From a virus, in the IMG/VR virus record IMGVR_UViG_3300047319_001547, positions 1 through 64,000 of that record: a stretch of DNA of 64,000 nt. One strand, written 5' to 3'. The notes beneath the pieces were generated by a model. The model did no database searches. It was not told the DNA's origin and was given only the letters and a program-made list of their open reading frames with translations. The translations under genes and the position numbers were made by a program. Of the stretch, positions 1 through 58,497 are shown piece after piece (position 1 is the stretch's first letter; the number at the start of each line of letters is the position of its first letter).

Positions 1-507
1 GTGCAGGCGGGCGCCACCTACATACGCACGATCCCCTGGGTGAGGTGGAGCTCCCCGCAGCTCTCGGGCGATCGTCCCCCCACCGGCTGCGAGGCGGTCG
101 TGATCGCGCACGGAAAGTCGAAGGGGCGCAAGCACTGGGGCGGGCCCGGCAACCTGACGCACTTCAGCCAGAAGTGCCTGCGGGGCGAGACGAAGCACCG
201 CGCCGAGAAGCCGCTCGACCTGATGCTGTCGCTGGTCGAGTACTTCTCGGACGCGGGCGAGCTCGTCGTCGACCCGTTCGCGGGCGCCGGCACCACCGGG
301 CTGGCGTGCCGCATCCTGGGGCGCCGGTTCGTCGGCGCGGAGCTCGACTCCGAGTGGGCCGAGAGGGCGCGACTGAGGATCAGAGCGCCGCACTTTTCGG
401 CCCGAGATGTTGAGCGTTTCAATCGCTGGGAGGGAGGCGCCGACCTTGGAACTCGAGTTCCAACCGCCCGTCCGCTCCCGGGACACGGAGTGGAGGCGAC
501 ACCGTGA
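1..507 (+). CDS. DNA methyltransferase (N6-adenine/N4-cytosine type), 5'-truncated by window edge
   Basis: HRAEKP..L...LVEYFS..GELVVDPFAGAGTTGLAC..LGRRFVGAELD: SAM-binding FxGxG motif at the C-terminus as in beta-class MTases. Confidence 0.85.
   Translation: MQAGATYIRTIPWVRWSSPQLSGDRPPTGCEAVVIAHGKSKGRKHWGGPGNLTHFSQKCLRGETKHRAEKPLDLMLSLVEYFSDAGELVVDPFAGAGTTGLACRILGRRFVGAELDSEWAERARLRIRAPHFSARDVERFNRWEGGADLGTRVPTARPLPGHGVEATP
447..462. repeat. 16-bp palindrome TGGAACTCGAGTTCCA, copy 1 (in MTase 3' end, read GTRVP)
   Basis: exact match, flanks T...A. Confidence 0.98.
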
Positions 508-908
508 ATGACGATCCGATGTTCGAGCCGGTCGTGACGAAACCCTACGGCGAGATCCGCTCCGACATGGCGGCCGCCGAGGCGAAGGAGCGCGGCTGCG
601 TGGTGGTGCTGCCGAAGGAAAACGAGCTCTTCATCGACATCGACTCTGAGGAGCAGGACGGCGCGTTCGAGCGAGCGATCGCGATCTACCGCCGTCACCG
701 CTCGGCTGTGGCGGTCAAGACGCCTTCGCCGAGTGGCGAGCCGGATCACTTTCACGTGGTGGTGCGTCTGACCAAGACGGTCGACGCGCGCGAGCGCATC
801 ATGCTGCAAGCCTGCATGGGATCCGACCCGGTGCGCGAGATGCTGAGCCTCCTGAGGCTGGAGCGTGGAGACCCGAACCCGACTCTCTTCTTCGAGAAGA
901 AGCCGTGA
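504..908 (+). CDS. hypothetical protein with primase-polymerase (AEP)-like motifs
   Basis: LFIDID (hhhDxD) followed by TPSPSG..DHFHVVV (SxSG..xH); overlaps upstream stop (GTGA). Confidence 0.45.
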   Translation: MNDDPMFEPVVTKPYGEIRSDMAAAEAKERGCVVVLPKENELFIDIDSEEQDGAFERAIAIYRRHRSAVAVKTPSPSGEPDHFHVVVRLTKTVDARERIMLQACMGSDPVREMLSLLRLERGDPNPTLFFEKKP

Positions 909-1264
909 CGACGCCCGAGGAGGTGTTTCAGATGCTGGCGCTCTCGATGGGGCGCGCCCTGATGCACCGGCACCGCGTCGTGCCGGTCGTCACGACCCTT
1001 CTGGAGCACAACGATCAGGTGAGGGTCGCGCGGTGCGGCCTGGACCGCGTGATCGTTGGTCAGGTGCCGACCGCGGAGGCGCTCGAGAACGCCCGGCTGG
1101 TCGACATCGAGTGGCGGCAGCTGGTGGGAGACCGGGAGCCTCAGGACTGCTGCGTGGTGCTGGACCGGCGGGTCGGCCAGGTGAGGCTCGAGGAGCTGAC
1201 GCCCGAGTGGCGCGCCCAGCTGGACGACTGGGAGCGGTCGGCGCGCGCGAAGTCCGCCAACTGA
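905..1264 (+). CDS. hypothetical protein
   Basis: GTGA overlap with previous gene, GC3-rich codons. Confidence 0.6.
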   Translation: MTTPEEVFQMLALSMGRALMHRHRVVPVVTTLLEHNDQVRVARCGLDRVIVGQVPTAEALENARLVDIEWRQLVGDREPQDCCVVLDRRVGQVRLEELTPEWRAQLDDWERSARAKSAN

Positions 1265-1282
1265 AGCGGCAAGAGATCTCGC

Positions 1283-1651
1283 ATGAGAGAAGCGCTCGAG
1301 AAGGTCCGCGCCCTGGTGGCGAATCCCAACACGTGGACGCGAGGCCAGTTCGCCCGAACTGCCGATGATCAGAGCTTTCGTCTGCCGCTCGACCCCGAAG
1401 CCGCCAGGTGGTGCCTGCGGGGCGCAGTTGCGCGGGCCTGCAACGACAGCGGGTTGGTCACCCCCGAGAGTTCAGAGGCCATCGCGGTGAGAGACGCGCT
1501 CATCAGAGCGGTCGCTTCGCTGGGGATCGACGTGCCGCCGGGAAAACACCAGCTGACCCACGTGAACGACGAGCTGGGGCGCGAGAAGACGCTGGAAGTG
1601 GTCGAGCGCGCGATCGCGGATTCGCCCGAAGAGGAGAAACTGCCATGGTGA
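1283..1651 (+). CDS. hypothetical phage protein (DUF6197-like)
   Basis: WTRGQFAR...WCLRGAV pattern recalled from this small phage family. Confidence 0.45.
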   Translation: MREALEKVRALVANPNTWTRGQFARTADDQSFRLPLDPEAARWCLRGAVARACNDSGLVTPESSEAIAVRDALIRAVASLGIDVPPGKHQLTHVNDELGREKTLEVVERAIADSPEEEKLPW

Positions 1652-3026: not shown

Positions 3027-3677
3027 TTGAAGCGAAAGAAGAAGCCGACGCCAGGGCGGAAGCGAGATCCCGCCAACCTGATCAAGCCGGGCGAGCAGCG
3101 GCCTGTCGGTCACGTCGAGCCGCACGACCCCGACGGCAGATCGCCCGAGGATCGGATGGAGGACGAGCAGACCGGATTCGTGCTGCGGCTGCTCTCCAAC
3201 TCGCTGACGGTGCGCGAGATCGAGGCGGCGTGCCGCCAGCAGTACGGGATCGGCCACTCGCGCGTCACGAGGCTGCGTGCGCGCGCTCTCGAGGAGCTGC
3301 GGGTGGCGGCGGAGGCGAACCGTCCGTACGCGAAGGGCGAGGCGATAGCGCGCCTGCGCGGCGACCTCAGGACGCTCGCGGGGGCGATCGCGAGCGAGAC
3401 CGCGAAGCCGAAGGGTGCGGACCCGCGCGTGCTGGCGTCGCTCATCTCGGCCAAGCAGACGACCGAGATGAGGCTGGCTGACGTCGAGGGGACGCGCGCG
3501 CCCGACGAGGTGAGGGTGCATCACAACGTCACGGGGGCGCTCCTGACGGTGGCGGCGAACCTGACGCCCGAGCAGCTTCAGGCGGCGTTCGACCGCGGGA
3601 TGGAGCGCAGGCGGAAGGCGGCGATGTTCGACGCCGAGCAGAAGCTCTTGGTCGAGGCGGCAAAGGAACCGACGTGA
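3027..3677 (+). CDS. HTH protein, probable terminase small subunit
   Basis: HTH-like LTVREIEAAC...GIGHSRVTRLR, helical middle, RLADVEGTRAPDEVRV resembling the R.kl.GldaP..v motif of TerS-like proteins; upstream of TerL. Confidence 0.5.
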   Translation: MKRKKKPTPGRKRDPANLIKPGEQRPVGHVEPHDPDGRSPEDRMEDEQTGFVLRLLSNSLTVREIEAACRQQYGIGHSRVTRLRARALEELRVAAEANRPYAKGEAIARLRGDLRTLAGAIASETAKPKGADPRVLASLISAKQTTEMRLADVEGTRAPDEVRVHHNVTGALLTVAANLTPEQLQAAFDRGMERRRKAAMFDAEQKLLVEAAKEPT

Positions 3678-4051
3678 AGGTCACCAACACGATCGTCGGC
3701 GTCTTCGTGGTCGTTTTCTTCTCGACGGTGATCGGAGCACTCTCGATTCATCTGGCGGCCCAACCTGGAACTCGAGTTCCAGCAGACGAGCAGCGATGCG
3801 AGGACCGCGGCCGCGCGTGGGTGTGCTGGGTCGAGACGGCGCGCCTCACGACGGGCGACGGGCAGGATGAGAAGCCACCCACCGCAGTGAGTCCTCCCGC
3901 GGAGCCCGATGTGCCGCGATGCTGCTTGTGCGACGCGGTGCTGCGCGGAGACGACCGTCACGACCAGCAAGCAGCGTGCTGGCCCTGCCGGTCACGTCTC
4001 TCTGACGCCGAGCCGTTCTGGCTTCGCTTTCTCCGGTGGCTGGTGCGCTGA
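3674..4051 (+). CDS. membrane-anchored hypothetical protein with CxxC...CxxC
   Basis: N-terminal hydrophobic helix; GTGA overlap. Confidence 0.55.
   Translation: MKVTNTIVGVFVVVFFSTVIGALSIHLAAQPGTRVPADEQRCEDRGRAWVCWVETARLTTGDGQDEKPPTAVSPPAEPDVPRCCLCDAVLRGDDRHDQQAACWPCRSRLSDAEPFWLRFLRWLVR
3766..3781. repeat. 16-bp palindrome copy 2 (intragenic, GTRVP)
   Basis: exact match, flanks C...G. Confidence 0.98.
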
Positions 4052-4070: not shown

Positions 4071-4724
4071 ATGAGCGAACTCGAATACTTGGTGACGGAC
4101 GAAGACGCGAAGCTGATCGCGGACATGGTGGCTCGTCGCGCGACGATGTCGAGGGGCGATCTCGCGCACAACATCGGGTGTCTGATGCTGCGCGATGGCT
4201 ATCGACGCGGCGCAAGCGCGTCCCACAACGGCGCGATCGACGCGGAGGTGTCGAAGGGGCTGCGCGCCGAGAACGATGCTCTCAGGGCGTCGCTGAATCA
4301 CGCGAACGTCAGGCTCGAGTCCGCGATGGAGGCGATGAAGCGTGTTGGTGACCTTCACGACGACCGCGACGAGAACGGCTATTCGACGCATCCGCTCGTC
4401 CGAGAGCTGGAAGGGCAGATCGACAAGCGCGAGAAGGCCACCGCGTCAGCACTCGAGCAGGCGCGCGTCCTCGGCGAGGAGAACGCGAAGCTGATGAAGG
4501 ACCACGCCGACTTGCTGAACGATGGGATCAAGCGCGGTCGCGCCCAGGTGGTCGGCTGGCTGACCCCTGTTGCCGAGCTTCTGACCGAGAGAGGGGCGCT
4601 GAACGTCGCCGCCCTGGTGCGCGAGCTTCAGTCGTCCATCGTTCGAGCGGTGCTGGACGTGTCGATCCCGTTCGCCACGGCGCTCATCCGCTGCACCGAC
4701 ATGCCGTCCGACGACGTGGAGTGA
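4071..4724 (+). CDS. coiled-coil hypothetical protein
   Basis: ORF with typical codon bias, heptad pattern. Confidence 0.6.
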   Translation: MSELEYLVTDEDAKLIADMVARRATMSRGDLAHNIGCLMLRDGYRRGASASHNGAIDAEVSKGLRAENDALRASLNHANVRLESAMEAMKRVGDLHDDRDENGYSTHPLVRELEGQIDKREKATASALEQARVLGEENAKLMKDHADLLNDGIKRGRAQVVGWLTPVAELLTERGALNVAALVRELQSSIVRAVLDVSIPFATALIRCTDMPSDDVE

Positions 4725-5531: not shown

Positions 5532-6032
5532 ATGGCGGACTTCGACCCGAGGAAGATGACGGACGAAGAGCGGGTGGCGATGAAGGAGCTGGAGCAGGCG
5601 GTCGTCCAGACCGCCTTCCCGGTGGTGAAGCTGTTCCTCAAGGCGGCCCACGACACCGGCAACCCGCTGGCCGGGTCGGTCGGCGACTTCTGCGCGATGG
5701 TGACGCTGCTGTCGATGTTCCTCCGCGACGCGGCTGAGCGTCAGGGGGTCGACACTGGAACTCGAGTTCCAACCCAGGACCCGCAGCAGAGCGAGTTCGC
5801 CAAGAACGCCGCGTGGCTGAAGGCGAACCGCGGGCAGGCGCGCTGGGACGGCAAGTGGGTGGCTCTTCAGGCAGGTCAGCCGCTGGTCGGCCCGTACGAC
5901 GCGCGCGACACCGTCGAGAAGGTGGCGACGTCGGCCGGGTGGGATCTGACGAAGATGACGATCGTCCGCGTGGGCGCGCCCGACTACGCGTCGATGCTGG
6001 AAGATCCGCCGGGCGGCATCAAGCCCGCATGA
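5532..6032 (+). CDS. hypothetical protein with C-terminal DUF5678-like segment
   Basis: WLKANR...WDGKWVALQAG pattern; two domains joined by a linker carrying palindrome copy 3. Confidence 0.55.
   Translation: MADFDPRKMTDEERVAMKELEQAVVQTAFPVVKLFLKAAHDTGNPLAGSVGDFCAMVTLLSMFLRDAAERQGVDTGTRVPTQDPQQSEFAKNAAWLKANRGQARWDGKWVALQAGQPLVGPYDARDTVEKVATSAGWDLTKMTIVRVGAPDYASMLEDPPGGIKPA
5756..5771. repeat. 16-bp palindrome copy 3 (intragenic linker, GTRVP)
   Basis: exact match, flanks C...A. Confidence 0.98.
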
Positions 6033-6441: not shown

Positions 6442-8094
6442 GTGGAGGCGATCGCTGACAGTCCGGAGATGCTCGAGGTCGCGCTCGAGGATCTGATGAT
6501 CCGCGCCCAGGAGGCGCGCGAGGACCCCACCAAGTTCCTGGCGTTCGTGATGCGCGCCGAGGACACGGGCGAGCCGATCGAGCCGGCCGACCACCAAATA
6601 GTCATGCTGGACTTCCTGGTCCAGCACCGCGCCGCCTGCGTCCTCACCGCGGTCGACCACGCCAAGACATTCACTAGCGCCGCCCTGGTGCTCTGGCTGC
6701 TGGGCCACAACCCGCGGCTCCGCATCGCGCTCCTGGGGGACGCCGAGGAGCAGCCCAAGAAGGTGCTGAAGGTCATCCGAACGATGATCGAGCAGTCGGC
6801 GGAGCTCCGGCTCGTCTTCCCGAGCCTGCGCAAGACGACGCGAGACGGCGAGCCCTGGACGGACTCCGACATCACGGTCGAGCGCGGCCCCGGCATCAAG
6901 GACTCTTCGGTATGCGCGCGCGGGCTCGAGTCGTCCCTCATCCCAGGCTCTCGCTGGGACGTGGCGATCCTCGACGACTTCGTGAACGACGAGAACGTCC
7001 GCACACCGGAGCGCCGCGACTGGCAGCACTCGCTGGTCCAGAAGCGCTGCGTGCCGCGCGTCGACAAGAATCACGGCCGCATCTACCTGCTGTCGAACGC
7101 CTGGCACGAGGACGACAGCTTCCAGCGACACGCGAAGGTCTGGCCCTGCCTGACGATGAGGGTCGACGGCACGATCCTGATCAAGAACGCCCCGACGTGG
7201 GACAGCCCGCTGATACGGCCCGCGGACGACCGGCCCGCCGAAGACCCGAACGCCGAGTACCGGCTGATCGCGCACGACCCGGATCCGACCAACGAGCAGA
7301 CCCTCTGGCCCGAGCGCTTCAGCCGCGAAACGATCGCGAAGATCCGCGAGCAGATGCTGCCGGAGGCGTTCGCCCAGACCTACATGTGCATCTGCCGCGA
7401 CTACAGCCAGTCGCTCTGCCGTCCCGAGTACATCGCGAAGGCGCAGCAGATCGGTCGCGAGCTTCAGATCCATCCCGACGTCTACAAGGCATACGGCGGC
7501 TTTCATCGACGCAAGGAGGACGTCCGGATCCCGTGCGGCCAGGGGTTGGTCTTCATCGGGGTCGACATGGCGTTCAGCAAGCAGTCGAGCGCCGACGAGA
7601 GCGCGATCTTCACCTTCATGGTGCTGCCGGGCGCCATCAGGCTGCCGCTCTGGATCGAGCACGGCCGCTGGGGGGCGGAGGAGCTGGAGCAGCGCGTGCT
7701 GGACCACCACGAGCGCTACCAGCCGTCAGCCTTTGCGGTCGAGAACGTCGCGGCCCAGGAGCACGTCCGGCAGTTCCTCCAGCGGGTCGACAAGACGATG
7801 CCGATCAAGCCCTACACAACCGACGCCAAGAAGCACAACGTGTTCTTCGGCGTCCCCTCCATCTTCGCCGAGTTCGCCGCGGGCGCGTGGGCGTTTCCCA
7901 ATCAGGAGGGACGGATGCGGCCGGAGCTCCAGAAGTTCGCCGACCAGTGCCTCGGCTATGCGCCCTCCGATCACACGGGCGACCTCCTGATGGCCGCCTA
8001 CTTTGCGTCCGAGATGGCGAAGAAGTTCGGCGCCCTCGCGCGCAACCTCGGGCCGAAGAACAAGCGGATCGCGGCAAACCTCATGGCGAGGTGA
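6442..8094 (+). CDS. terL: terminase large subunit
   Basis: ADHQ adenine-binding Q, Walker A-like AVDHAKT, Walker B VAILDD, coupling SNAWH.DD, LWPERF, RNase H-fold FIGVDMA...ADESA...AVE.VAAQ...DHTGDLLMA. Confidence 0.9.
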   Translation: MEAIADSPEMLEVALEDLMIRAQEAREDPTKFLAFVMRAEDTGEPIEPADHQIVMLDFLVQHRAACVLTAVDHAKTFTSAALVLWLLGHNPRLRIALLGDAEEQPKKVLKVIRTMIEQSAELRLVFPSLRKTTRDGEPWTDSDITVERGPGIKDSSVCARGLESSLIPGSRWDVAILDDFVNDENVRTPERRDWQHSLVQKRCVPRVDKNHGRIYLLSNAWHEDDSFQRHAKVWPCLTMRVDGTILIKNAPTWDSPLIRPADDRPAEDPNAEYRLIAHDPDPTNEQTLWPERFSRETIAKIREQMLPEAFAQTYMCICRDYSQSLCRPEYIAKAQQIGRELQIHPDVYKAYGGFHRRKEDVRIPCGQGLVFIGVDMAFSKQSSADESAIFTFMVLPGAIRLPLWIEHGRWGAEELEQRVLDHHERYQPSAFAVENVAAQEHVRQFLQRVDKTMPIKPYTTDAKKHNVFFGVPSIFAEFAAGAWAFPNQEGRMRPELQKFADQCLGYAPSDHTGDLLMAAYFASEMAKKFGALARNLGPKNKRIAANLMAR

Positions 8095-8345
8095 TGATGG
8101 GCGGAGCTCGGATGCGGTCGGACGGCACTCGCCAGAACGCGGTCTTCATCGACGCGCTGCGGGCGGTCCTGAGGCTCGACCCACTCTACGAGAGCGTGAG
8201 CCAGCGCAACGCACGCATGCCCGCGGAGCTCCGCCACGTGGTCGGCATCTGGCCGGATTTCGCCGACAACGACGGCCATCTGGCTGCGATGAACTTCCAC
8301 CCTGGAACTCGAGTTCCAACCCCGGGACGCCGCGCGTGCCGGTAG
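8094..8345 (+). CDS. hypothetical protein
   Basis: TGATG coupling to TerL. Confidence 0.45.
   Translation: MMGGARMRSDGTRQNAVFIDALRAVLRLDPLYESVSQRNARMPAELRHVVGIWPDFADNDGHLAAMNFHPGTRVPTPGRRACR
8303..8318. repeat. 16-bp palindrome copy 4 (3' end of small ORF, GTRVP)
   Basis: exact match, flanks C...A. Confidence 0.98.
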
Positions 8346-10124: not shown

Positions 10125-10412
10125 ATGATCGTTCTCATCTGGGTGTTCTGGGCACTCGTCAGCGTCGCGTCGATCGCGTGCATCTGGAAGCTCGGCCGGT
10201 GGATCTCGAGATGGTGGTCGGACGTCCCGAAGGCGGCCGCCTATCCGAGTCGAACATTCCGCCCCGAGGCGGAGCCGGATCCGTTTCCGATGCGCCCCCT
10301 CGCGAAGGCATACCCGAAGGCGCCGGACCGTCCCGTCAGTCGGACGATGAAGACCCACAAGGCACGGGTGGCGGCCAAGACGAAGGCGAAGCGCGGCAAG
10401 AAGAAACCGTGA
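10125..10412 (+). CDS. membrane-anchored basic protein
   Basis: TAGGAT-6nt-ATG leaderless signature; N-terminal TM helix, Lys-rich tail. Confidence 0.55.
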   Translation: MIVLIWVFWALVSVASIACIWKLGRWISRWWSDVPKAAAYPSRTFRPEAEPDPFPMRPLAKAYPKAPDRPVSRTMKTHKARVAAKTKAKRGKKKP

Positions 10413-10843
10413 GCCAAGACGGAAAGATCGAGCTGGAACTCGAGTTCCAAGACCAGCTTTCCACCATCGCCCAGCGGCTCGACGAGATCGGGCTGGCGCA
10501 GAATGCCGACCTGACGCTCATCCAGCCGATCGAGGGCGCGTACGGACGGTTCGCGGTCCTGAGGGTGGTGGGGGCGGACGAGATGTCGCGCCTCCAGCCG
10601 ATGAGACCGCGCTCCCAGGAGCCGACGGAGGACCGCCGGCGAGCGCTCGGAGCGCGCATCAAGCTGCTGGTCCAGGTCAAGTACGGCGCGCAGTTCACGC
10701 GCGAGTCCGCCCTGTCGTGGCTCCGAAATGAGCGCAAGCTGCTGCCGCAGGAGTCTATTGAGCAGCTCGACCTGCTGCTGAATCGCGGCGCCCTGATGGT
10801 CGATCCCGACGGCTTCCTGAAGTTCCCGCCCGAGACGGTCTGA
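10409..10843 (+). CDS. hypothetical protein
   Basis: GTGA overlap; contains palindrome read as LELEFQ. Confidence 0.55.
   Translation: MSQDGKIELELEFQDQLSTIAQRLDEIGLAQNADLTLIQPIEGAYGRFAVLRVVGADEMSRLQPMRPRSQEPTEDRRRALGARIKLLVQVKYGAQFTRESALSWLRNERKLLPQESIEQLDLLLNRGALMVDPDGFLKFPPETV
10434..10449. repeat. 16-bp palindrome copy 5 (intragenic, LELEFQ)
   Basis: exact match, flanks C...A. Confidence 0.98.
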
Positions 10844-18220: not shown

Positions 18221-18403
18221 GTGAGTCGGTTGCAGCCCCGTCGGGACGTTAGCGAATCCCAAACGCCCGTGCCTGGAACTCGAGTTCCAACCCCTCAGAG
18301 CATCGCGGTCTGCCGCGCGTGCCGCTGCCGCTATCTCGCGAAGTTCACGCAGTGCGTGAAGTGCGGCGCGGCAAACCCCGGTGCATGTGGATCATCTTCC
18401 TGA
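18221..18403 (+). CDS. small zinc-ribbon protein
   Basis: CRAC...CVKCG; GTGA overlap. Confidence 0.5.
   Translation: MSRLQPRRDVSESQTPVPGTRVPTPQSIAVCRACRCRYLAKFTQCVKCGAANPGACGSSS
18274..18289. repeat. 16-bp palindrome copy 6 (intragenic, GTRVP)
   Basis: exact match, flanks C...A. Confidence 0.98.
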
Positions 18404-19665: not shown

Positions 19666-19970
19666 TGGCGGCTCTTCAGGAAGCGATCGACGCGCTGGCG
19701 AAGCGCGCGAATCAGATCGCCCGGTTCGTCGGCCTCTGGCGGGCGAACCGCACGCAGGCCGGCAAGGCGGCCCATCAGACCTACGGGCACGGCAAGGTGC
19801 CGCGCGATCTTCACTACGCGCTCCACCCCGCCGACGAGCAGCACCCGCGCGGCTACCAGCGGGTCCGGCTGGCGCAAGGAATTTATGCGAACGTCCGGGC
19901 AGGCTACGGTGAGGGAGCGCGGGCAGCCCGCGCGCGCCGGGGAGGACGTGGACCTTTCGGAGGGGCTTGA
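19665..19970 (+). CDS. basic hypothetical protein
   Basis: TGATG coupling. Confidence 0.5.
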   Translation: MAALQEAIDALAKRANQIARFVGLWRANRTQAGKAAHQTYGHGKVPRDLHYALHPADEQHPRGYQRVRLAQGIYANVRAGYGEGARAARARRGGRGPFGGA

Positions 19971-20118
19971 GATGTCGGGCGACAAGGACGGATTCGACGA
20001 GGCGGACTCGGTGGTGACGTCGGTCGAGACCCCGACCGCGCTGAAGTCGGAGCGTCCGAAGAAGACCCGATCGGGCGAGCACGAGTTCGTGCTTCCGAAG
20101 CAGCACAAGAAGATCAGC

Positions 20119-20134
20119 TGGAACTCGAGTTCCA
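20119..20134. repeat. 16-bp palindrome copy 7 (last codons of small ORF 19972-20139, WNSSS)
   Basis: exact match, flanks C...A. Confidence 0.98.
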
Positions 20135-20355
20135 AGTGAGATCCGGCGAGAACATCCGCGACGATCTTCGCGAGGTCATCACCCGTCTGTTCGTGCGCGG
20201 CGTCTTTTTCTGTTTGGAAGAGGACAACGACTTTTACGCGACCCTGCAGTTCGAGGAAGCCAGGGATTGGGCGGTGCTCGCAACGATAACGATGCCGAAC
20301 CGGGGTCCCTGGGCGAGAGCGTGATAACCGCGCCTCCGGGCGCTACGCTCCGCCC

Positions 20356-21742: not shown

Positions 21743-21770
21743 GCCAAACCCTTCCGGTTTTCAGATACCC

Positions 21771-22352: not shown

Positions 22353-22367
22353 GGTAGGCTTCACGAC

Positions 22368-41026: not shown

Positions 41027-41042
41027 TGGAACTCGAGTTCCA
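41027..41042. repeat. 16-bp palindrome copy 12 (intergenic, 4 bp after stop)
   Basis: exact match, extends to 20 bp GT...AC. Confidence 0.98.
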
Positions 41043-47119: not shown

Positions 47120-47518
47120 ATGCCTGGACCGTCCGGCGAAGAGCGCGTGAAGATCAGGATGCACCTGGGGTACCTCAACGTGCAGATGGCCTTCACGTTC
47201 GTCTTGGGGGTGCCGGCCGCGGTCCAGACGCAGTTCACCGTCGAAGGCGCGATGGACCGACTGCTGCTCGACGCCGAGCCGGAGATGCGCCGCCACCTGA
47301 GGATCCTCGACAAGATCCAGGACCAGATGGTGGACGACCTCGAGCTGCTGGCGGTAGAGGGGATCGACGAGATCAAGATCCGCAAGGACGAGCAGGCGGC
47401 CCTCTGGGATCAGTACGAGCAGTGGCGCCGGGGACTTGCGAACCTGTTCGGAATCGCGCCCAATCCGTTCGACCAGCGGCTGAAGTCGAAGGGCGTCAAC
47501 GTCGCGCGGACACACTGA
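47120..47518 (+). CDS. putative head-tail adaptor
   Basis: helical 132 aa, EERVKIRMHLGY; position after capsid. Confidence 0.55.
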   Translation: MPGPSGEERVKIRMHLGYLNVQMAFTFVLGVPAAVQTQFTVEGAMDRLLLDAEPEMRRHLRILDKIQDQMVDDLELLAVEGIDEIKIRKDEQAALWDQYEQWRRGLANLFGIAPNPFDQRLKSKGVNVARTH

Positions 47519-47521
47519 TGC

Positions 47522-47537
47522 TGGAACTCGAGTTCCA
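47522..47537. repeat. 16-bp palindrome copy 13 (intergenic, over -35 position of next promoter)
   Basis: exact match, flanks C...G; TAAGGT-7nt-ATG begins 18 nt downstream. Confidence 0.98.
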
Positions 47538-47568
47538 GGCCCCCTCGAAAGGCGATAAGGTGACCGAC

Positions 47569-47835
47569 ATGATGACCGGCGTGAAAATGCTGTTTCTGGG
47601 TTCTCTAGCGGCGCTCTGCGCCGGATGCCTCAACACGCCCGCCAAGGTGGTGGAGACGACCGTCCTGACGGCCGAGATGACGACCTGCATCCTGGAGCAC
47701 GTCACGGACCAGCTCCCCGCCATCCTGGTCGAGTGCAACATCCCGAAGGCGCTCGCCGACGAGGTGAAGGTGCTCGACACGGCGAACAAGAAGATGGCGG
47801 CCAAGAAGGCTGCCGCCTGCGCGGGCGCGAAGTAA
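47569..47835 (+). CDS. small lipoprotein
   Basis: hydrophobic leader ending LCAGC. Confidence 0.55.
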   Translation: MMTGVKMLFLGSLAALCAGCLNTPAKVVETTVLTAEMTTCILEHVTDQLPAILVECNIPKALADEVKVLDTANKKMAAKKAAACAGAK

Positions 47836-49422: not shown

Positions 49423-49438
49423 TGGAACTCGAGTTCCA
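49423..49438. repeat. 16-bp palindrome copy 14 (intergenic, at predicted +1 of sheath promoter)
   Basis: exact match, flanks C...G; TAGCCT ends 4 nt upstream. Confidence 0.98.
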
Positions 49439-49461: not shown

Positions 49462-52053
49462 ATGTCGATCTTCACGCGCAGATTCCTGAGCGATCCGGGC
49501 GAGCAGGTTCTGCTCAACATCGAGTCGGTCAACATCATCGACCTCCAGCCTCCGAGCGACATCACGGGGGTAGGCAGCGGCACGGTCTGCATCGTCGGCG
49601 AGTTCGAGAACGGGCCATTCAACACCCCCACCGAGGTCTTCAGCGGCAACGGGTTCGTCGCCTCGTTCGGGTCGCTCGGCTACACGTACGGCGGCATCCA
49701 GGCGCAGAATCCCTGCGCGCGCGCCCGCAAGTCGGACGGCGCGCTCGTGCCGGAGTACTGGAACGGCAACGGGTTCGTCCAGCTCAACGCCAAACGGTTC
49801 TCTCGCCTCGTCGTGGCGCGCGTCGACACGAGCGTGGGAGCGGTCAGCGTCCAGCGGCTCGCGTTCCTGACGGGCGCCGCGTCGTTCCGCTACCAGCTCG
49901 CGAACGCTCAGGTGCTGCAGCTCGACGTCGGGGCGGGCCCGCTGAGCGCGACCTTCAACGCCACGGCGGCGACCGTCACGGCGGCCGGCGGCGTCTACCC
50001 CACCACCTTCGCGGGCGGCAACACGCTGACGCTCGGCTACGACTCGACGCCGAACTTCGTCGTCACCTTCCTGGCGGCCGATCAGACGCTCGCCCAGGTG
50101 GTGGCGCGCATCAATCAGTACGCCGGGTTCGCGTTCGCGGACTCGACGGGCGGGCAGCTGCGCCTGACGGGACTCCAGCAGGGGTCGGGCGCCCAGGTGC
50201 GGGTCGTGTCGGGTTCGGCCGGCGTGCTGACGCAGCTCGGCCTGACGTCCGCCACCACGTTCGGGACCGGCAACGTCGCGAACGTCGCGGCCGTCACCGC
50301 CCAGGAGATCACACTTGTGGTCCAGGCGGCGGTCGCCAACACGAAGGTCGAAGTCGACCAGAACGGGGCGCTGCGGATCTCCAACACGGTCGCGCCGGGC
50401 TTCATCCTGGTGGGCGCCGCCACGACGGCGGTCAACCTCGGCTTCCTGGTGGGCGCTGAGGCGACCGACAACGGCCAGCCCGTTCTGGTCAGCGGAGCCG
50501 GCACCTACAATCTCGGGACGACCGGGACCATCACACTTCAACTCGACGCGGCGCTGCCGAGCGTCGTGACGACCGTGACGGCGGGCGACAGCCTGGCGAC
50601 GACCGTCACGAACCTCAACGCAGCCTTCACGGCGGCCGGTCAGGGCGCGCCCGTGGTGGCTGACGGCGCGGTGCGGTTCGCCGTGACGGGCCCGAACCCG
50701 GGCGGAACCGTCTCGGTCGTAGCGGCAAGTTTGCCGGCCGTCCTGACGGAGCTCGGCCTGGTGGTGGGTGGCACGAAGGGACTTCTGCCGCCGTTCGGTC
50801 TGCTGCCGGCCGGCACGCAGGTGGGGGTGTCGGGCGGCGTCCAGTTCGTGACGATGCAGGACATCGACTTCGAGCTGGCGGGCGTCAGCATCTCGGGCGT
50901 CCTTCAGGTGAAGGCCGCCAGCTACTCGGTGAAGATCCGGCACGCACTCGACGACGGGACGGGGCTCGGAACGGGCGCCGGGACCGTGACGGTGATCGCG
51001 AGCTCGCCGGCGATCGGCGCCTTCTCGGTCATCAACCCCCAGATCGTCTCTGCTGCCCTCACGGAGGCGGCGATCGACTCTCAGTACACGACCGCCCTTC
51101 AGTCGACGACCAACATCACGAACGTCGGGCAGCAGATCAACGTCCAGTGGTCGGCCCGGCAGTCGAACACGATCCGGAGCGCGCTGAAGAACACCGCTCT
51201 GAACGCCAGCGCGGCCGGATGTCTCGGCCGGATGGCGATCGTCCGGACGCCGATGAACACGCTCGAGGCGACCGCGCTCTCCACGACTGCCCAGCCGGGC
51301 GTCGGCGCGACGCGCGATCAGCGGGTCGTCTTCTGCTACCCGCAGGCCAACACGTTCGTGCCCATCATCGCCCTCCTGGGGATCAGCGGCGGCACGGGCT
51401 TCACGGCGACCGGCAACGTCGACGTCGGGGCGGACGGCTTCCTGGCGTCGATCCTCAGCCTTCTGAACCCCGAGGAGGACCCCGGGCAGGCGACGAGCTT
51501 CACGGGCGGCGTCAACAGCCTGGAGAGCGGCGCGAACATCCAGCAGGCCAACGGCGGGCTGGGCTTCCAGATGAGCGACTACCAAGCCTTCAAGGCGGCG
51601 GGCATCTGCGCGCTCCGGATCGACACCGGCGTTGCGATCTTCCAGAGCGGCGTGACGAGCGTCGACCCGCTGGTGTTCCCGAATCTGGTGGACATCAATC
51701 GCCGGCGGATCGCCGACTTCATCCAGGACAGCATCGCGATCTCGATGAAGCAGTACGGAAAGAAGCTCTCGACCGTCAAGCGGCGCGCCGCGATCGTGAC
51801 GCAGATCCGAAACTTCATGACGGGACTCGCCGGCGGCGGGCCGGGGGCGGCGGACGGCAACCCGAACAACCCCGACGCTCAGAGGATCGCGGGCTTCTCG
51901 CTCGACCCGAAGACGGCCAACACGGTGACGTCCCTCGGCAAGGGTCTGTTCCGCCTGATCCTGCGCACCCGCACGCTCTCGAGCCTGAAGGCCATCGTGA
52001 TTCAGACCGAGATCGGACCGACCGTCGTCACCGTCAGCGAGCTGACGGGCTGA
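49462..52053 (+). CDS. tail sheath protein with inserted domains
   Basis: TVCIVGEFENGPFN.P.EV......F..FG, LVVARV, C-terminal INRRRIADFI. Confidence 0.85.
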   Translation: MSIFTRRFLSDPGEQVLLNIESVNIIDLQPPSDITGVGSGTVCIVGEFENGPFNTPTEVFSGNGFVASFGSLGYTYGGIQAQNPCARARKSDGALVPEYWNGNGFVQLNAKRFSRLVVARVDTSVGAVSVQRLAFLTGAASFRYQLANAQVLQLDVGAGPLSATFNATAATVTAAGGVYPTTFAGGNTLTLGYDSTPNFVVTFLAADQTLAQVVARINQYAGFAFADSTGGQLRLTGLQQGSGAQVRVVSGSAGVLTQLGLTSATTFGTGNVANVAAVTAQEITLVVQAAVANTKVEVDQNGALRISNTVAPGFILVGAATTAVNLGFLVGAEATDNGQPVLVSGAGTYNLGTTGTITLQLDAALPSVVTTVTAGDSLATTVTNLNAAFTAAGQGAPVVADGAVRFAVTGPNPGGTVSVVAASLPAVLTELGLVVGGTKGLLPPFGLLPAGTQVGVSGGVQFVTMQDIDFELAGVSISGVLQVKAASYSVKIRHALDDGTGLGTGAGTVTVIASSPAIGAFSVINPQIVSAALTEAAIDSQYTTALQSTTNITNVGQQINVQWSARQSNTIRSALKNTALNASAAGCLGRMAIVRTPMNTLEATALSTTAQPGVGATRDQRVVFCYPQANTFVPIIALLGISGGTGFTATGNVDVGADGFLASILSLLNPEEDPGQATSFTGGVNSLESGANIQQANGGLGFQMSDYQAFKAAGICALRIDTGVAIFQSGVTSVDPLVFPNLVDINRRRIADFIQDSIAISMKQYGKKLSTVKRRAAIVTQIRNFMTGLAGGGPGAADGNPNNPDAQRIAGFSLDPKTANTVTSLGKGLFRLILRTRTLSSLKAIVIQTEIGPTVVTVSELTG

Positions 52054-53376: not shown

Positions 53377-53673
53377 CTATCCGGTGACCTTCCCGCAGTC
53401 CATCTCCGTTTCGTTCAGAGCGGCTTCGAGCGCCCTGATGGGGTTAGGATCGCCCGCCGGAAGCTCGACCGCAGCCAGCAGCTCCTTCTGAAGCTGGTCG
53501 ATCGTCCCGGCGTGCCCCTTCACGAAGTCGCCCAGCAGGCAGCAGAGACCCTCGACGGCCTCCGCACGCGTCTCGCCGTGGGCCGCCGCCCCGACGCCTT
53601 CGATGCTGGCCTCCCAGTGGCCGCCCTCTTGACGCTCCGTCTTCAGCACGCTCTTGACCTCTAGATCGCTCAT
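53377..53673 (-). CDS. HicB-like protein
   Basis: ERQEGGHWEASIEGVGAAAHGETRAEAVEGL matches HicB N-terminal pattern. Confidence 0.6.
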   Translation of the reverse strand: MSDLEVKSVLKTERQEGGHWEASIEGVGAAAHGETRAEAVEGLCCLLGDFVKGHAGTIDQLQKELLAAVELPAGDPNPIRALEAALNETEMDCGKVTG

Positions 53674-54251
53674 GGGGCGGGAGATGCCGCGCGCGACTTC
53701 GGCTCGTCGTCCTTCTCGATCGTCTGCTTGTAGAGGTTCCCCGACGGTGCGTGGAAGATGACGATGCCCTCCGGGCGCATGAAGCCGGGGGCTGCAACGC
53801 TTCCTTTTTCTTTCAGATCGTTCATGCACATGCGGATCCCGTCGGTGTCGAACGTGTCGAACAGTCCGAGAATTGGAACGACGTCGCAGCAGGGCGGCCG
53901 AATCTGGCGAGCTTCACCGTGAGGCTCTTCCGCGAGCCAGCGTCCGACGTTGAAGAGTGAGAAACGCTTCTCCTTCAAGTCGTAGCGGCGCTGGATCCCT
54001 TGACCCCACCACTCGCCGAAGTGCCGACCGGGCCCGAGTCCTCGCAGCTCTTCGCGGTGTTCCGACACCCAGAAGGCGAAGCCGAAGTTGTCCGCATCGG
54101 GAGAGATCCAGCGTGTGCGGGATCCCGCCGTCACGGTTCCGTCTTCGGCCACATGCACGCAGGCGTTCGTGCCGTCGATCTTCTCCGTCACGATGATGCG
54201 GCGCTGGAGGCGGAAGATCTTCGGGAACTCGACGAAGTCGTTGTCGCTCAT
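53670..54251 (-). CDS. RNA ligase (Rnl2-type nucleotidyltransferase domain)
   Basis: FPKI.R, TEKIDGTN (motif I), GSRTR, FGEWWG.GIQ, F.LFN, EGIV, YK. Confidence 0.9.
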   Translation of the reverse strand: MSDNDFVEFPKIFRLQRRIIVTEKIDGTNACVHVAEDGTVTAGSRTRWISPDADNFGFAFWVSEHREELRGLGPGRHFGEWWGQGIQRRYDLKEKRFSLFNVGRWLAEEPHGEARQIRPPCCDVVPILGLFDTFDTDGIRMCMNDLKEKGSVAAPGFMRPEGIVIFHAPSGNLYKQTIEKDDEPKSRAASPAP

Positions 54252-54484
54252 GCGTCAGGAGTTGCCGCGCGAATTATCGCGTCGACGGCATACGGGAGCC
54301 ACGGAGGAGGAGAAGGATACCCAGCACGGATCATCCAACCCCACGCCCATTGAGCAGCTTCGTGAGACCCCATCCCCATCCGCGCCGACAGCGAAGCGTA
54401 CGCCGCCACGTCGGGGGCAATTTCGCCGTTTACACCCCAGCGCGTATCACCAATCGCTAATCGGATCGCATCCTCGTGCGTCAC
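54248..54484 (-). CDS. hypothetical protein
   Basis: overlapping start/stop with both neighbours. Confidence 0.5.
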   Translation of the reverse strand: MTHEDAIRLAIGDTRWGVNGEIAPDVAAYASLSARMGMGSHEAAQWAWGWMIRAGYPSPPPWLPYAVDAIIRAATPDA

Positions 54485-54789
54485 GGTTCCGCCGATTCAT
54501 CGGGCGCCAGGACGGTCAGGCAGATGCGCGCGCCCGCATCGTCCCGGACGACGAACCGGATCGGCGCGCCGTCGGTCGCGCACCAGATCTCGTCGCCCGT
54601 CCCGGTCCGCCCCTGGGTGCGCTCGGCGGTCCGGCTGATGATCATGCACTCGACGCGCGCCCTCCCGGGGGACAGCTGGGGGCAGATGCGCTCGCGGAAC
54701 TGGTCGAACGCGTGCCCGGAGATGAAGAACGGGCCGTCGTGGCGGCGCTTCGGGCCCCCGTGAGCTGCTGACTTGTGAGACTTCCCCAC
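54481..54789 (-). CDS. small protein with toxin-ribonuclease-like N-terminal motif
   Basis: FFISGHAFDQFRERI...IRFVV...ICLTVL resembles hSxHAxxRxxER proteins. Confidence 0.45.
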   Translation of the reverse strand: MGKSHKSAAHGGPKRRHDGPFFISGHAFDQFRERICPQLSPGRARVECMIISRTAERTQGRTGTGDEIWCATDGAPIRFVVRDDAGARICLTVLAPDESAEP

Positions 54790-54809: not shown

Positions 54810-54825
54810 TGGAACTCGAGTTCCA
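54810..54825. repeat. 16-bp palindrome copy 15 (between divergent genes)
   Basis: exact match, flanks C...A. Confidence 0.98.
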
Positions 54826-54841: not shown

Positions 54842-55363
54842 GTGAGCAAGATCACGATCGACCAGGCGCCCGGGTGGGTGAAGAACCTGGAGGGGGAGCT
54901 GCACCGCGCCGCCCTGAAGGGCGTCAGGTCTGCCGGCCAGCGGCTCGTCTCTCACATCCAGACGGAGGTCATCCCGGCGGAGTCGCGCGTGCCGGTCGAC
55001 CGCGGGATCTACAAGGCGGCCTGGAGGTCGACGAACGAGCCGAACGGCTGCGACGTCCACAACGACAGCCCGCACGCGGGCTTCATCGATGACGGGGTGA
55101 GGGGGGCGAACGTGAAGATCGGCCGCAAGCTGATCGAGGCGCTGGTCGACTGGGTGCAGCGCAAGGGGTTGGTGCGGGACGTTTCGCGCAACTCCAAGAC
55201 GGCGGCCGCGCGTCAGATCGCCTGGGGGATCGCCAAGTCGATGCAGAAGAAAGGGATCTTCAACTCGGGTGCGGGCCTGAAGATCCTCGAGAAGGGGCGG
55301 CGCCAGGTGGCGCGCTTCATCGACGAGGAGGTCAGACGCGAGATTGAGAAGATCCGACGCTGA
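54842..55363 (+). CDS. HK97 gp10-like neck/tail protein
   Basis: VPVDRG.YK..W...HNDSPHAGFIDDG.R. Confidence 0.7.
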   Translation: MSKITIDQAPGWVKNLEGELHRAALKGVRSAGQRLVSHIQTEVIPAESRVPVDRGIYKAAWRSTNEPNGCDVHNDSPHAGFIDDGVRGANVKIGRKLIEALVDWVQRKGLVRDVSRNSKTAAARQIAWGIAKSMQKKGIFNSGAGLKILEKGRRQVARFIDEEVRREIEKIRR

Positions 55364-55391
55364 GCGCACAATCGCCGCGGAGGCGCGTGAG

Positions 55392-56243: not shown

Positions 56244-58214
56244 GTGGCTGAGCACACGGAAGTAAAAACGAAGCTGACGCTCGACGACGCGGCCAGCACC
56301 GCCCTGCACCACATCCGCGAGGGATTCGCGGACGTCGGCGAGAAGGTCAAGGAGGTCGGGCACGAGCTGGTCTCGATGGCCAAGCAGGCGGCCGCGGTGG
56401 CGATCGGCTTTCAGCTGAGCGGAATGATCGACAGCTTCAAGGAGCTGGGCCACGAGCTCGTCGAGGGGGCGACCCACCTCGAGAATCAGAAGAAGGAGCT
56501 CGCCGGCGTCATCTCGCTCGCCGAGAAGGGTGACATGTCGATGGAGGAGCTCGGCGAGCGTGCCGGGCAGCTCAATGAGAGGTTCGAGATGCTCGGCATC
56601 ACGGCGGGCGTCTCGAAGGACTCGCTGGTCGACATGTTCGAGATGATGGCGAGCCGCTCGACGCGCGGCAGCGCGGCGGCTGCCGACATGGCGGAGCAGA
56701 TGGCGATCGCCGCGCGCGTGCTCCCGGGCGGCGCTGACGCGATGGCGGCGGCGTGGCGCGACCTCGAGTCGGGGATCGTCCGGCCCAAGAACGCGCTCGT
56801 GATGCTGATGCGTCAGACCGGCGTGGCGGCCGGCACCAGCAAGCAGATCGCCAAGGGGCTGAGCGCCCTCTTCACGGCCGGCAAGCAGGAGAAGGCGATG
56901 CAGATGGCAGAGCAGGCCATCAGCCGCATGGCGGAGAAGATGCGCCACGTTCCGCCGACGTTCGAGCAGGTTCTGACGAGCCTGAAGGGCTTCCGCGAGA
57001 TGTTCATCGAGACGATGGGAACGCCGATCCTCCGGCAGATCGTCCCGCAGTTCGAGCGCCTCAAGCAGTACCTGATCGGCCACCGCGAGGAGATCGAGAA
57101 GCTTGCCCACACGATGGGGGAGAAGGTCGGCGAGTGGGTGTCGCGCGCGGCCGAGATGATCCGCGACGCCTTCATGTACCTGCAGTCTCATTCGCAGGAG
57201 ATCTTCGAAGCGCTCGAGGGCGGAGCGAAAGCCATCAAGGACGCAGTGTCTTTCATGGTGACGCACCGGCAGCTTCTGCTGGGGCTGGCGGCGGCGAACT
57301 TCGTGGGCGGCGCGGTCGGGGGCGAGGGCGGGAAGGCCGCCAAGCTGGCGGGGTCGCTGCCGCAGATCGGCACCGCGCTCGGCGAAGGACTCAAGAAGGC
57401 GCTGAATCAGAAGACGTTCGGGGTCCAGATGGGACTCGGCGGGATGGCGCTCGGCGCGGGCGCCGGCATCGCGGCCGTGGCGGCCTGGCGGGGCGCGTTC
57501 GAGCAGGCGGCAGTGCTCGAGAAGGAGAGCGGCCTGACGACCCTCCAGACGATGAAGCACCTGCTTCACATCGGGGGCGGACTGTCGACCGCCAGCAACC
57601 GCATCATGAACTTCGGCTCTGTGCTGGGGAGGTTCGCCGAGGACTCCGCCAACATCGACGCGTCGGGCGACGACCTCGAGCAGCTGGCGGACAAGATCGG
57701 GCGCCTGGGGCGCGCGGCCGTCGCGGCGGGCGACATGACCCAGGAGGCGCTCGACAAGACGATGCGCGCCACCAACGAGCGGCTCGAGACCGAGACGAAG
57801 CTGCGGGGGGCTCTCGACCAGATGAGGGACTCGAACGTCGAGGCGGCCAGCGGGCCGCTCGGCAGCATCGATCCGATGCACCACTACATGGAGGCGTTCG
57901 CGGCCGCGAACGAGGGGCACGCCAAGGAGGCGGTCCTTCAGGCGCACCGCATGAGCGACGCGATGCGGATCGCCATCGCGGGCCCGATGGGGACGATCGA
58001 CGACGCCATCAAGAAGCTTCAGGCATACGCGACGGGCAAAACTGATGGGGAATTCAAGCCGCCGCAGATCAACTTCGGCCCGACGACGATGAACATCAAG
58101 CAGGATTTCAGAGACCAGGATCCCGACAGGATCGCGATCGTCTTCCGGAAGGACATCGCGAAGAACGCAGCGAGCCGCGTGAGCGCCCGCACCGCGACTC
58201 CGTTCGGCTACTGA
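56244..58214 (+). CDS. tape measure protein
   Basis: Ala/Gly/Met-rich helical, TKLTLDDAAS N-terminus, C-terminal INF...NIKQDF; follows chaperone. Confidence 0.85.
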   Translation: MAEHTEVKTKLTLDDAASTALHHIREGFADVGEKVKEVGHELVSMAKQAAAVAIGFQLSGMIDSFKELGHELVEGATHLENQKKELAGVISLAEKGDMSMEELGERAGQLNERFEMLGITAGVSKDSLVDMFEMMASRSTRGSAAAADMAEQMAIAARVLPGGADAMAAAWRDLESGIVRPKNALVMLMRQTGVAAGTSKQIAKGLSALFTAGKQEKAMQMAEQAISRMAEKMRHVPPTFEQVLTSLKGFREMFIETMGTPILRQIVPQFERLKQYLIGHREEIEKLAHTMGEKVGEWVSRAAEMIRDAFMYLQSHSQEIFEALEGGAKAIKDAVSFMVTHRQLLLGLAAANFVGGAVGGEGGKAAKLAGSLPQIGTALGEGLKKALNQKTFGVQMGLGGMALGAGAGIAAVAAWRGAFEQAAVLEKESGLTTLQTMKHLLHIGGGLSTASNRIMNFGSVLGRFAEDSANIDASGDDLEQLADKIGRLGRAAVAAGDMTQEALDKTMRATNERLETETKLRGALDQMRDSNVEAASGPLGSIDPMHHYMEAFAAANEGHAKEAVLQAHRMSDAMRIAIAGPMGTIDDAIKKLQAYATGKTDGEFKPPQINFGPTTMNIKQDFRDQDPDRIAIVFRKDIAKNAASRVSARTATPFGY

Positions 58215-58253
58215 GTGTTCGCGCCCGCCCGGCGGCGCTGCTAGACAGGCTGA

Positions 58254-58478
58254 ATGACGACCGTCGACAACACGCAGCTGGCAGCCCTCGTTTCCGACTT
58301 CGAATCCAAGGAGCAGGCGCTCTCAGACGCGTCCGACTCCGACGGCGCTGCCCAGAAGGCGCTCGCCGACGCGACCGCGGCCGCAGCTGCGACGCTGGCG
58401 GCCAAGAGCGCGGCTCACGACGCCCTGGTGGCGTCCGGCAACGCTCTCGTCAGCTTCGTCCACACCGTCGCGTCCTGA
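58254..58478 (+). CDS. small Ala-rich helical protein
   Basis: 74 aa coiled-coil-like. Confidence 0.5.
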   Translation: MTTVDNTQLAALVSDFESKEQALSDASDSDGAAQKALADATAAAAATLAAKSAAHDALVASGNALVSFVHTVAS

Positions 58479-58481
58479 CGC

Positions 58482-58497
58482 TGGAACTCGAGTTCCA
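58482..58497. repeat. 16-bp palindrome copy 16 (intergenic, 3 bp after stop)
   Basis: exact match, flanks C...G. Confidence 0.98.

Follow-up and report, generated by a model that had tools for sequence, protein, structure and literature searches.

The first 64,000 bases (the window) of the 95,060-bp virus record IMGVR_UViG_3300047319_001547, which IMG/VR rates as complete and which is labelled G000 in our set of genomes, contain 16 exact copies of the 16-bp palindrome TGGAACTCGAGTTCCA, compared with none in 100 shuffles of the sequence. An earlier note, made from the letters of the window alone, had listed 16 exact copies, and every one of them was found; a search allowing up to three mismatches added no copy to the window, with 0.3 expected. 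Across the whole record the number rises to 24 exact copies, the eight beyond the window starting at 67216, 69645, 70717, 72503, 77235, 82592, 86694, and 92742, and no copy with one or two mismatches is present, the closest degenerate match differing at three positions. The density is thereby about one copy per 4 kb, and the copies stand mainly at gene and operon junctions.

Beyond this record the palindrome is all but absent. In IMG/VR it occurs once in just one other contig, and a search of 185,579 bacterial and archaeal species genomes returned single chance matches only. Because only single chance matches occur in the species genomes, the palindrome is not a host repeat, and a host-factor site or host repeat is ruled out as its explanation. 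An adaptor or assembly artefact, which the earlier note had named as fatal to its own claim, was also rejected, as relatives from independent metagenomes bear their own palindromes at equal density and copies are found in frame within conserved genes.

Conservation extends slightly past the 16 bp. All 24 copies have a pyrimidine at −1 and a purine at +1, a G or C stands at −2 in 22 of them and at +2 in 23, and a profile of the flanks to 30 nucleotides (nt) on either side of the 24 copies reveals no further conserved position. Because of this flanking pattern, the real unit is an 18–20-bp dyad, S-Y-TGGAACTCGAGTTCCA-R-S, with degenerate outer positions. The −1/+1 pairs (C/G in 8 copies, C/A in 7, T/G in 5, and T/A in 4) match the expectation for independent half-sites, unlike that for a paired stem, which argues that the unit is read as duplex DNA and not as a hairpin. 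The often unpaired pyrimidine-left, purine-right flanks described earlier for the window are thus a property of the entire record.

The copies that fall within genes are written in codons that this genome seldom uses. Genome-wide, the within-family shares are 15% for GGA, 4.4% for ACT, 7.8% for CGA, 6.0% for GTT, and 3.5% for CCA, in agreement with the rare-codon use noted previously, and the use of such codons indicates that selection acts on the DNA.

Placement of the copies in the genome

Genes were called with a codon-usage model trained on long open reading frames (ORFs), and nearly all of them lie on the plus strand. By these calls, 12–14 of the 24 copies are intergenic, compared with 9–14% of the genome that is non-coding (P about 4e-7), and most of the others fall within the first or last few codons of a gene. 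The clearly internal copies are those at 5756, 70717, 77235 (in a DnaG-type primase gene), 82592 (in a sigma-like gene), and 86694 (in the tail of a family B DNA polymerase, PolB); protein alignments place the last three in variable linkers or tails. The earlier description of copies in small genes is correct for some of them, but several of the ORFs concerned are doubtful or have alternative starts, and about half of all copies are intergenic by the counts above. The companion statement, that the large core genes lack the palindrome, is borne out inside the window and fails beyond it, where the primase, the sigma-like gene, and the PolB tail each hold a copy. Alignment with homologues, which had been proposed as a way to tell insertion from substitution, shows the intragenic copies in variable linkers, with no clean insertion of six codons, or of 16 or 18 bp, seen relative to the orthologues.

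Copy 1 (447–462) is read as GTRVP within the last 60 nt of ORF 1–507; the next start, at 504, follows 41 nt later. Copy 2 (3766–3781) falls between ORFs 3027–3677 and 4092–4724, or else within the weak ORF 3674–4051, and copy 3 (5756–5771) is in the middle of ORF 5556–6032, reading GTRVP in rare codons. Copy 4 (8303–8318) is in a doubtful small ORF, 209 nt past the stop codon of the large terminase gene (6442–8094), and copy 5 (10434–10449) forms codons 9–14 of ORF 10409–10843, where it reads LELEFQ. Copy 6 (18274–18289) is intergenic, between the gene for a fibre-like protein of 1184 amino acids (aa) and the next ORF, whereas copy 7 (20119–20134) supplies the final codons of ORF 19885–20139 (WNSSSK-stop), with a GTG start following 1 nt on.

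Further along the window, copy 9 (26398–26413) lies 71 nt past the stop of ORF 26057–26326. Copy 10 (29415–29430), whose flanks lengthen the dyad to 28 bp, is found 15 nt past the stop of ORF 28284–29399, in the convergent gap before the minus-strand gene 29835–31214. Copy 13 (47522–47537) forms codons 2–7 of ORF 47518–47835 (MLELEFQ), immediately past the stop of the upstream gene, and copy 14 (49423–49438) is intergenic, 23 nt upstream of the ATG of an 863-aa structural gene (49462–52053). Copy 15 (54810–54825) occupies the divergent gap between the minus-strand ORF 54481–54789 and the plus-strand ORF 54842–55363, and copy 16 (58482–58497) is 3 nt past the stop of ORF 58254–58478; in the nearest relative, both of these intervals likewise hold a site.

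The three remaining copies in the window stand beside promoter-like sequences. Copy 8 (23173–23188) follows a stop codon by 5 nt and is itself followed by a leaderless-type promoter, with a TAGGGT −10-like box (23191) 2 nt beyond the copy and an ATG at 23204. Copy 11 (35268–35283), 4 nt past a stop codon and 6 nt upstream of a TAGGGT box (35290; ATG at 35302), overlies the −35 and spacer region of the head-module operon promoter. Copy 12 (41027–41042) is 4 nt past the stop of a Mu F-like gene and 33 nt upstream of a TAGGGT box (41076; ATG at 41089). The boxes belong to structural operons and are all three of the gene-start-associated TAGGGT −10-like boxes in the genome, so that each such box has a copy 2–33 nt upstream of it, and each box lies 6–7 nt before its ATG, the geometry of a leaderless promoter.

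Private palindromes in related phages

A DNA search of cultured phages found no similar phage, and a locus search with one protein alone found no relatives. The portal protein (38131–39996) is 27% identical to Ralstonia phage portals and has hundreds of metagenomic homologues with identities of up to 71%. An alignment of portal homologues led to 79 IMG/VR loci, in each of which perfect palindromes were counted, and 80 of 174 PolB-linked relatives confirmed in IMG/VR were used as well. Seventeen near-complete relatives, with portals 41–56% identical, were fetched for closer comparison.

An invariant dyad of its own is present in 16 of these 17 relatives, with a length of 16–26 bp, a copy number of 6–26, a sequence that differs by lineage, and a centre that is nearly always C|G. 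The enrichment in related phages on which the earlier note had set store is thus found as the same kind of array, in each case with its own sequence. The closest relative (G001) has 20 exact copies of GGGAACCCGGGTTCCC and one copy with a single mismatch, and among the others are genomes with 18 copies of ATTGGAAACCCGGGTTTCCAAT (G012), 26 of CCACCGCACGGCGCCGTGCGGTGG (G006), 17 of AGTCGAGGCCCGGGCCTCGACT (G016), and 12 of GACCAAAARGCGCYTTTTGGTC (G017). When the set is widened to 90 related loci with lengths of 15 kb or more, a private 12-mer palindrome reaches three copies or more in 38 of them; these comprise 20 distinct cores, 18 of which are CG-centred. One relative (L300/L059) has a gapped dyad, ACGTCTA-N6-TAGACGT, in place of an uninterrupted one. 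No exact array was detected in a minority of relatives (G015, L314, L318, L321, L322, and some others), and none was seen in G008, a further low-GC record beside the 17.

The complete genome G015, which lacks a palindrome array, contains six copies of a long direct repeat (L157–L161, about 26.5–38 kb). The repeat has the core AAACCGAAACCC, with the minus-strand form GGGTTTCGGTTT, and a TTGACT-like hexamer stands ahead of each copy and ATGGT after it; from their sequence, these repeats look like a set of near-identical strong promoters.

The positional preference seen in G000 is general. Over 15 genomes, 154 of 245 sites are intergenic, compared with about 8% non-coding DNA, and in 65 of these 154 about 10 nt at most separate the upstream stop codon from the start of the palindrome. 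Intergenic palindromes usually end 11–80 nt ahead of the next start. A TANNNT box follows within 25 nt downstream at 37 sites, compared with 12 on the mirrored side; some sites adjoin −10 boxes, and others directly precede ribosome-binding sites, which leaves no space for a promoter. The sites are also evenly spaced, with a coefficient of variation of the gaps of 0.35–0.74 in all 15 genomes against about 0.9 expected (combined Z of −7.4), and this result is unchanged when random gene boundaries are taken as the null.

Where the dyad of a relative is degenerate, the two arms vary independently of one another. The 13 sites of GGAAWCCCGGGWTTCC in G013 comprise six T/A, three A/T, and four mixed sites, 10 of the 12 sites in G017 have unlike halves (A/G), and mixed M/K sites are present in G002. 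Such variation would mismatch a hairpin but would be tolerated by a dimer that reads half-sites on duplex DNA. The mixed W, M/K, and R/Y sites of these three genomes look like relaxed-specificity intermediates in a possible joint change of site and reader. Taken with the private palindromes, the even spacing, and the selection at the DNA level, the independent half-sites of this genome and three relatives make a duplex lattice read by a dimer, rather than a hairpin, the best-supported reading, as the earlier note had supposed. In all likelihood, a protein encoded by the phage docks at them on the duplex as a symmetric dimer.

The genomes of G000 and G001 are collinear, and about 6 of the 24 sites in G000 share a tight orthologue interval with a site in G001, whereas seven tight orthologue intervals hold a site in G000 only. 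The copy in the PolB tail occupies the same alignment column in both genomes, although its sequence and reading frame differ (GTRVP vs GNPGS), a coincidence that is difficult to account for unless selection acts on the DNA at this position.

A candidate reader and the possible function of the array

Proteins of all genomes were clustered into families to define core genes, and the non-structural core comprises a large terminase, an SF2 helicase, DnaB, the DnaG-type primase, UvrD, RecA, PolB, and SbcC- and SbcD-like proteins. A sigma-like core gene (82194–82913; L007:2194–2913), whose family profile matches FliA/ECF sigma region 2 with an E of 8e-6, is present in 16 of 17 relatives and is always directly upstream of a gene that we consider the candidate reader. 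Just upstream of the sigma-like gene, about 1.3 kb (80873–82194) is without a confident gene call.

The candidate reader gene lies outside the window at 82925–83917, encodes a protein of 330 aa, and represents a core family present in 16 of 17 genomes. The protein is laid out as a SAP-like N-terminal helix pair, a Cys4 zinc ribbon, a disordered linker, a helical domain, and a small C-terminal β domain, and the AlphaFold2 model has a predicted local distance difference test score (pLDDT) above 90 for residues 120–240. The top Foldseek matches of the helical domain are the DNA-binding domains of ParB, Noc, and Spo0J on parS/NBS (probability 0.93–0.98, E of 0.2–0.8). VIA-align, which is independent of Foldseek, also places these DNA-binding domains at or near the top, with Z of 7.5 for ParB (6s6h), 6.1 for Spo0J (root-mean-square deviation of 2.7 Å over 87 residues), 5.3/4.9 for KorB, and 4.7 for SopB. 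Among 14 members of the family, Pfam finds HTH_ParB in one (E of 0.0017) and DUF3102 in two, and the nearest ESM Atlas clusters are Plasmid_parti_N/DUF3102. These lines agree, each of them weakly, in suggesting that the candidate may have a ParB/KorB-type helix-turn-helix (HTH) domain, in which the putative recognition helix is hypervariable and its flanks are conserved.

The N-terminal CTPase domain of ParB is missing from the candidate, with no ParBc match in 14 of 14 members, and a sliding-clamp mechanism is accordingly not supported. No ParA- or KorA-like partner was recognised among about 50 proteins in a scan that was not exhaustive, and the core families include no ParA-like protein.

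Most of the proteins of the window that the earlier note had put forward as binders find no support in that role. The family of 3027–3677, possibly a small terminase with an HTH, gave only generic helical and coiled-coil matches in PDB profile and fold searches and could be an alternative binder, and 29835–31214 has no Pfam match and no orthologue in the nearest relative. The plus-strand gene 21296–21742 encodes a possible accessory protein with a DGHHR motif and a weak similarity to the ParB N-terminal domain and sulfiredoxin (Srx); it is stand-alone, has no HTH and no Pfam match to ParB, and occurs in 10 of 17 related genomes.

The explanation that we consider best overall, and to which we give about an even chance, is a docking array read by the 82925–83917 protein and used for control at transcription-unit boundaries. 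A symmetric protein dimer would dock on the duplex S-Y-TGGAACTCGAGTTCCA-R-S and read each half-site independently. Judging from the predicted fold and its conservation, the docking protein may well be the 82925–83917 product, a putative ParB/KorB-type HTH protein with no CTPase domain. Once bound, the protein might mark and control the boundaries of transcription units, either by blocking read-through or by occluding an adjacent promoter, a role that fits the sites at gene and operon junctions, some of them by −10 boxes. Because the site differs between lineages, each phage would then have a regulatory identity of its own, in the manner of the stoperators of Cluster A mycobacteriophages. Up to ~30 near-identical stoperators lie in those genomes, mostly in short intergenic gaps, and the bound repressor stops elongation; motif and repressor diverge together between subclusters and set immunity specificity (PMC6550527, PMC9283540). 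The likeness to stoperators that had been suggested earlier therefore stands as one of operation and not of membership. A stoperator is an asymmetric 13-bp site, oriented with transcription and bound by a monomeric two-domain repressor, whereas the sites here are perfect palindromes, symmetric and unoriented, with no asymmetric conserved flank.

Several observations weigh against this explanation. With regard to transcription, nine other leaderless-type promoters in the genome have no copy, as is true of most predicted promoters, and the distance from the site to the −10 box varies; together, these features show no fixed RNA polymerase geometry. Only about a quarter of the sites share a tight orthologue interval between G000 and G001, so that a function tied to fixed places is not strongly conserved. 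A site no more than 1.6 kb ahead of the candidate gene, as autoregulation might require, is present in 9 of 18 loci where chance would give 5.9, which is not a significant excess (p of 0.10). With regard to the reader, the fold matches of the candidate (Z below 8, Foldseek E above 0.1) are too weak to exclude a shared arrangement of helices. Over 25 lineages, the distance between recognition helices correlates only weakly with that between half-sites (partial Mantel r of 0.11, p of 0.07), Mantel tests of all core families against palindrome distance give no outlier, and the per-column association in the candidate is no higher than in the PolB control, with the sigma-like protein as a further control. 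The genomes G001 and L293 share the inner half-site GGAACCC, but their putative recognition helices differ, and the candidate protein is present in G015, L314, L318, L321, and L322, which have no detectable exact dyad array. On balance, the sequence and structure predictions leave the proposal that the 82925–83917 protein reads the palindrome evenly poised between right and wrong. Finally, the even spacing and the copies within genes fit a domain-organising role at least as well as one in transcription.

A more far-reaching version of the docking array, which we put forward only tentatively, would apply to the whole family of ~90–100-kb uncultured phages. Evenly placed private palindromes would split the chromosome into ~4–6-kb domains and be read by a ParB-type HTH protein that lost the CTPase clamp or never possessed it, and the array would act both as a genome-wide insulator or silencer and as a lineage identity code that guards against cross-regulation by co-infecting relatives, with site and reader changing together through relaxed-specificity intermediates.

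Somewhat less probable again, and on the whole unlikely, is a lattice that organises the chromosome, in which ParB/Noc-like loading or anchoring points would compact, tether, or bridge the DNA in ~4-kb domains, for example in replication factories or for packaging. An even covering of domains is what such a lattice predicts, and even spacing is found in every genome, also with respect to random gene boundaries, although it may stem from operon size or from deletions between close copies. Intragenic copies are kept where an operator has no obvious use, and the 16-bp dyads with their CG centre have a format like that of parS and NBS, as the candidate resembles ParB in predicted fold; the 21296–21742 protein is a separate, weakly ParB/Srx-like product. 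The candidate, however, is devoid of the CTPase clamp domain on which the spreading of ParB, Noc, and KorB depends, no core family supplies a ParA-like partner, and the intergenic bias and the downstream −10 boxes are superfluous for a purely structural role.

The known ParB-type systems offer a further comparison. KorB acts at proximal and distal operators among the 16-bp OB operators on plasmid RK2 (PMC11790492), in outline much as proposed above for control at transcription-unit boundaries, and SopB binds four inverted-repeat sites on the N15 prophage-plasmid (PMC7205306). The array described here is reminiscent of KorB/OB, ParB/parS, Noc/NBS, and SopB/N15 in that ~16-bp palindromes, here 24 exact copies with a CG centre, are dispersed on a mobile replicon near to or far from promoters, and in that the best fold matches of the candidate, according to its model, are ParB-type HTH DNA-binding domains. 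It differs in the candidate's lack of an N-terminal CTPase domain, in a higher copy number, in even spacing, and in a sequence private to each lineage.

Targets of a phage nuclease, nickase, or modification enzyme, serving as landmarks for recombination-dependent replication or as lineage-specific cut/protect sites, seem improbable. The phage does encode RecA, SbcC- and SbcD-like proteins, UvrD, DnaB, primase, and PolB, together with an HNH endonuclease (23724–24302); the central CG and the restriction-like cores of the dyads (CTCGAG, CCCGGG, ATCGAT, GTCGAC) would suit a symmetric cutter or methylase, and a private sequence per lineage would suit competition. The HNH endonuclease has an orthologue in the nearest relative, but its family is not conserved across the array-bearing relatives, the core families yielded neither a methyltransferase nor a dedicated nuclease in a scan that did not take in every protein, and the intergenic bias is left unexplained.

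There is little to recommend hairpins in RNA or single-strand DNA, whether as terminators, as stabilisers of mRNA 3′ ends, or as processing sites for a phage RNA-binding protein. Sites do lie directly past stop codons, the dyads of relatives reach 20–28 bp and would fold strongly, copy 12 (41027) has an extended stem and a T-rich tail, and copy 10 (29415), with its 28-bp dyad, lies in a convergent gap. However, many of the stems would be mismatched (C/A in 7 of 24 sites here, 4 of 13 mixed in G013, 10 of 12 in G017), the 6-bp stem is weak, copies occur inside essential genes, and such a role needs no identical sequence. Copy 12 is the sole terminator-like copy of the five in the 23–42-kb region, the terminator-like matches of that region do not exceed those in shuffles, and the flank profile contains no T run of the kind that follows the G+C-rich stem of an intrinsic terminator. 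A hairpin is therefore unlikely to be the selected property, and a few copies may double as terminators.

Equally slight is the case for a selfish or neutral mini-repeat (REP/MITE-like), spread by insertion or recombination and identical through recent copying: the copies are all identical with none decayed, positions turn over between relatives, and the Cluster O repeats discussed below are linked to indels (PMC4351075). Against it, comparison with orthologues shows no clean insertion of 16 or 18 bp, and a target-site duplication is excluded by the Y/R flanks. The arms vary independently where the dyad is degenerate, which points to selection on each half-site; this and the restriction to single chance matches in the species genomes set the palindrome apart from REP/RAYT elements, although no specific search for a RAYT gene was made. 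One intragenic site has an orthologous counterpart of changed sequence in G000 and G001, no transposase was found in a search that was not exhaustive, and the 15 diverged genomes are alike in copy number and in even spacing, which argues for a function. One cassette favours such spread: L032:19636–20048, compared with L030:19674–19801 (~97% identical), contains a 28-bp palindrome together with an extended −10 box (TGGTAACAT) and a ~97-aa gene. The cassette stands at a mosaic junction, and L030 retains an 8-nt remnant that matches one arm of the palindrome.

The nearest described case is that of the dyad repeats of Cluster O mycobacteriophages, a close analogue for a motif that the earlier note had not recognised from any described system. 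Those phages carry a 17-bp dyad, TGTTCGG-N3-CCGAACA, with 34 copies in Corndog (PMC4351075). About 40% of the repeats are intergenic, ~30% are at gene 5′ ends, and ~30% are inside genes, and the repeat is not found in the host (PMC4351075). The authors suggest a dimeric DNA-binding protein and tie recombination between copies to indels (PMC4351075). The two arrays share an invariant inverted repeat that is genome-wide, both inter- and intragenic, and not repeated in host genomes, a likeness that defines a descriptive class. They differ in that the Cluster O dyad has a 3-bp variable spacer, whereas the dyad here is uninterrupted with a CG centre; in that one sequence is common to all Cluster O phages, compared with one per lineage here; and in that even spacing, seen here, was not reported there. 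The phages themselves are unrelated, Cluster O being 70-kb siphoviruses and the present ones 95-kb contractile-tail phages with their own replisome.

Genome-wide arrays of an invariant dyad have been noted in a few cultured phages, such as those of Cluster O, with no function found, and a limited literature search returned no paper on the present phage family or its arrays. What is new is a set of dozens of diverged natural site "alleles" over an entire uncultured family, with a strong rule of even spacing, and, at the level of sequence, evidence for the separate reading of half-sites, for apparent intermediates in a change of specificity, and for a candidate reader conserved in the family. 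This natural diversity of sites makes an old question testable by binding experiments and specificity swaps. If the array does insulate or silence units or organise the chromosome, it would represent a general design principle of large phage genomes and a source of orthogonal protein–operator pairs.

A second palindrome family and neighbouring genes

A second family of palindromes, RGACAA-NN-TTGTCY (e.g., TGGACAAGCTTGTCCA), is present in three exact copies (21773–21786, 27005–27018, and 27971–27984), compared with 0.15 expected, with a weak fourth at 29460–29473. The family coincides with the −35 regions of three leaderless promoters. At 21771 and 27004, the place expected of a −35 hexamer is taken by the left half of the palindrome, TAGGAT or TAGGCT lies 6–7 nt downstream, and the ATG follows after a further 6 nt. 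A Sigma70_r4-only protein encoded nearby (25592–26047) is a plausible reader of this second family. The same protein had been proposed earlier as a binder of the 16-bp palindrome, but with just 4 of 20 relatives encoding it, it is too rare for a universal binder.

In the same part of the window, 20356–23167 is a probable lysis module, comprising a GH25 muramidase (20356–21147) and two proteins with zinc-metallopeptidase (matrixin-like) motifs (21807–22352 and 22574–23167). No lysogeny genes were identified in the phage. A protein with an RNA-ligase domain is encoded on the minus strand at 53670–54251, within a small minus-strand island. In one relative, the portal homologue (P0004, 1013 aa, on a 98.9-kb contig) contains an intein/homing-endonuclease insertion, as indicated by Pfam assignments precomputed at the source (PF14528 and PF14890).

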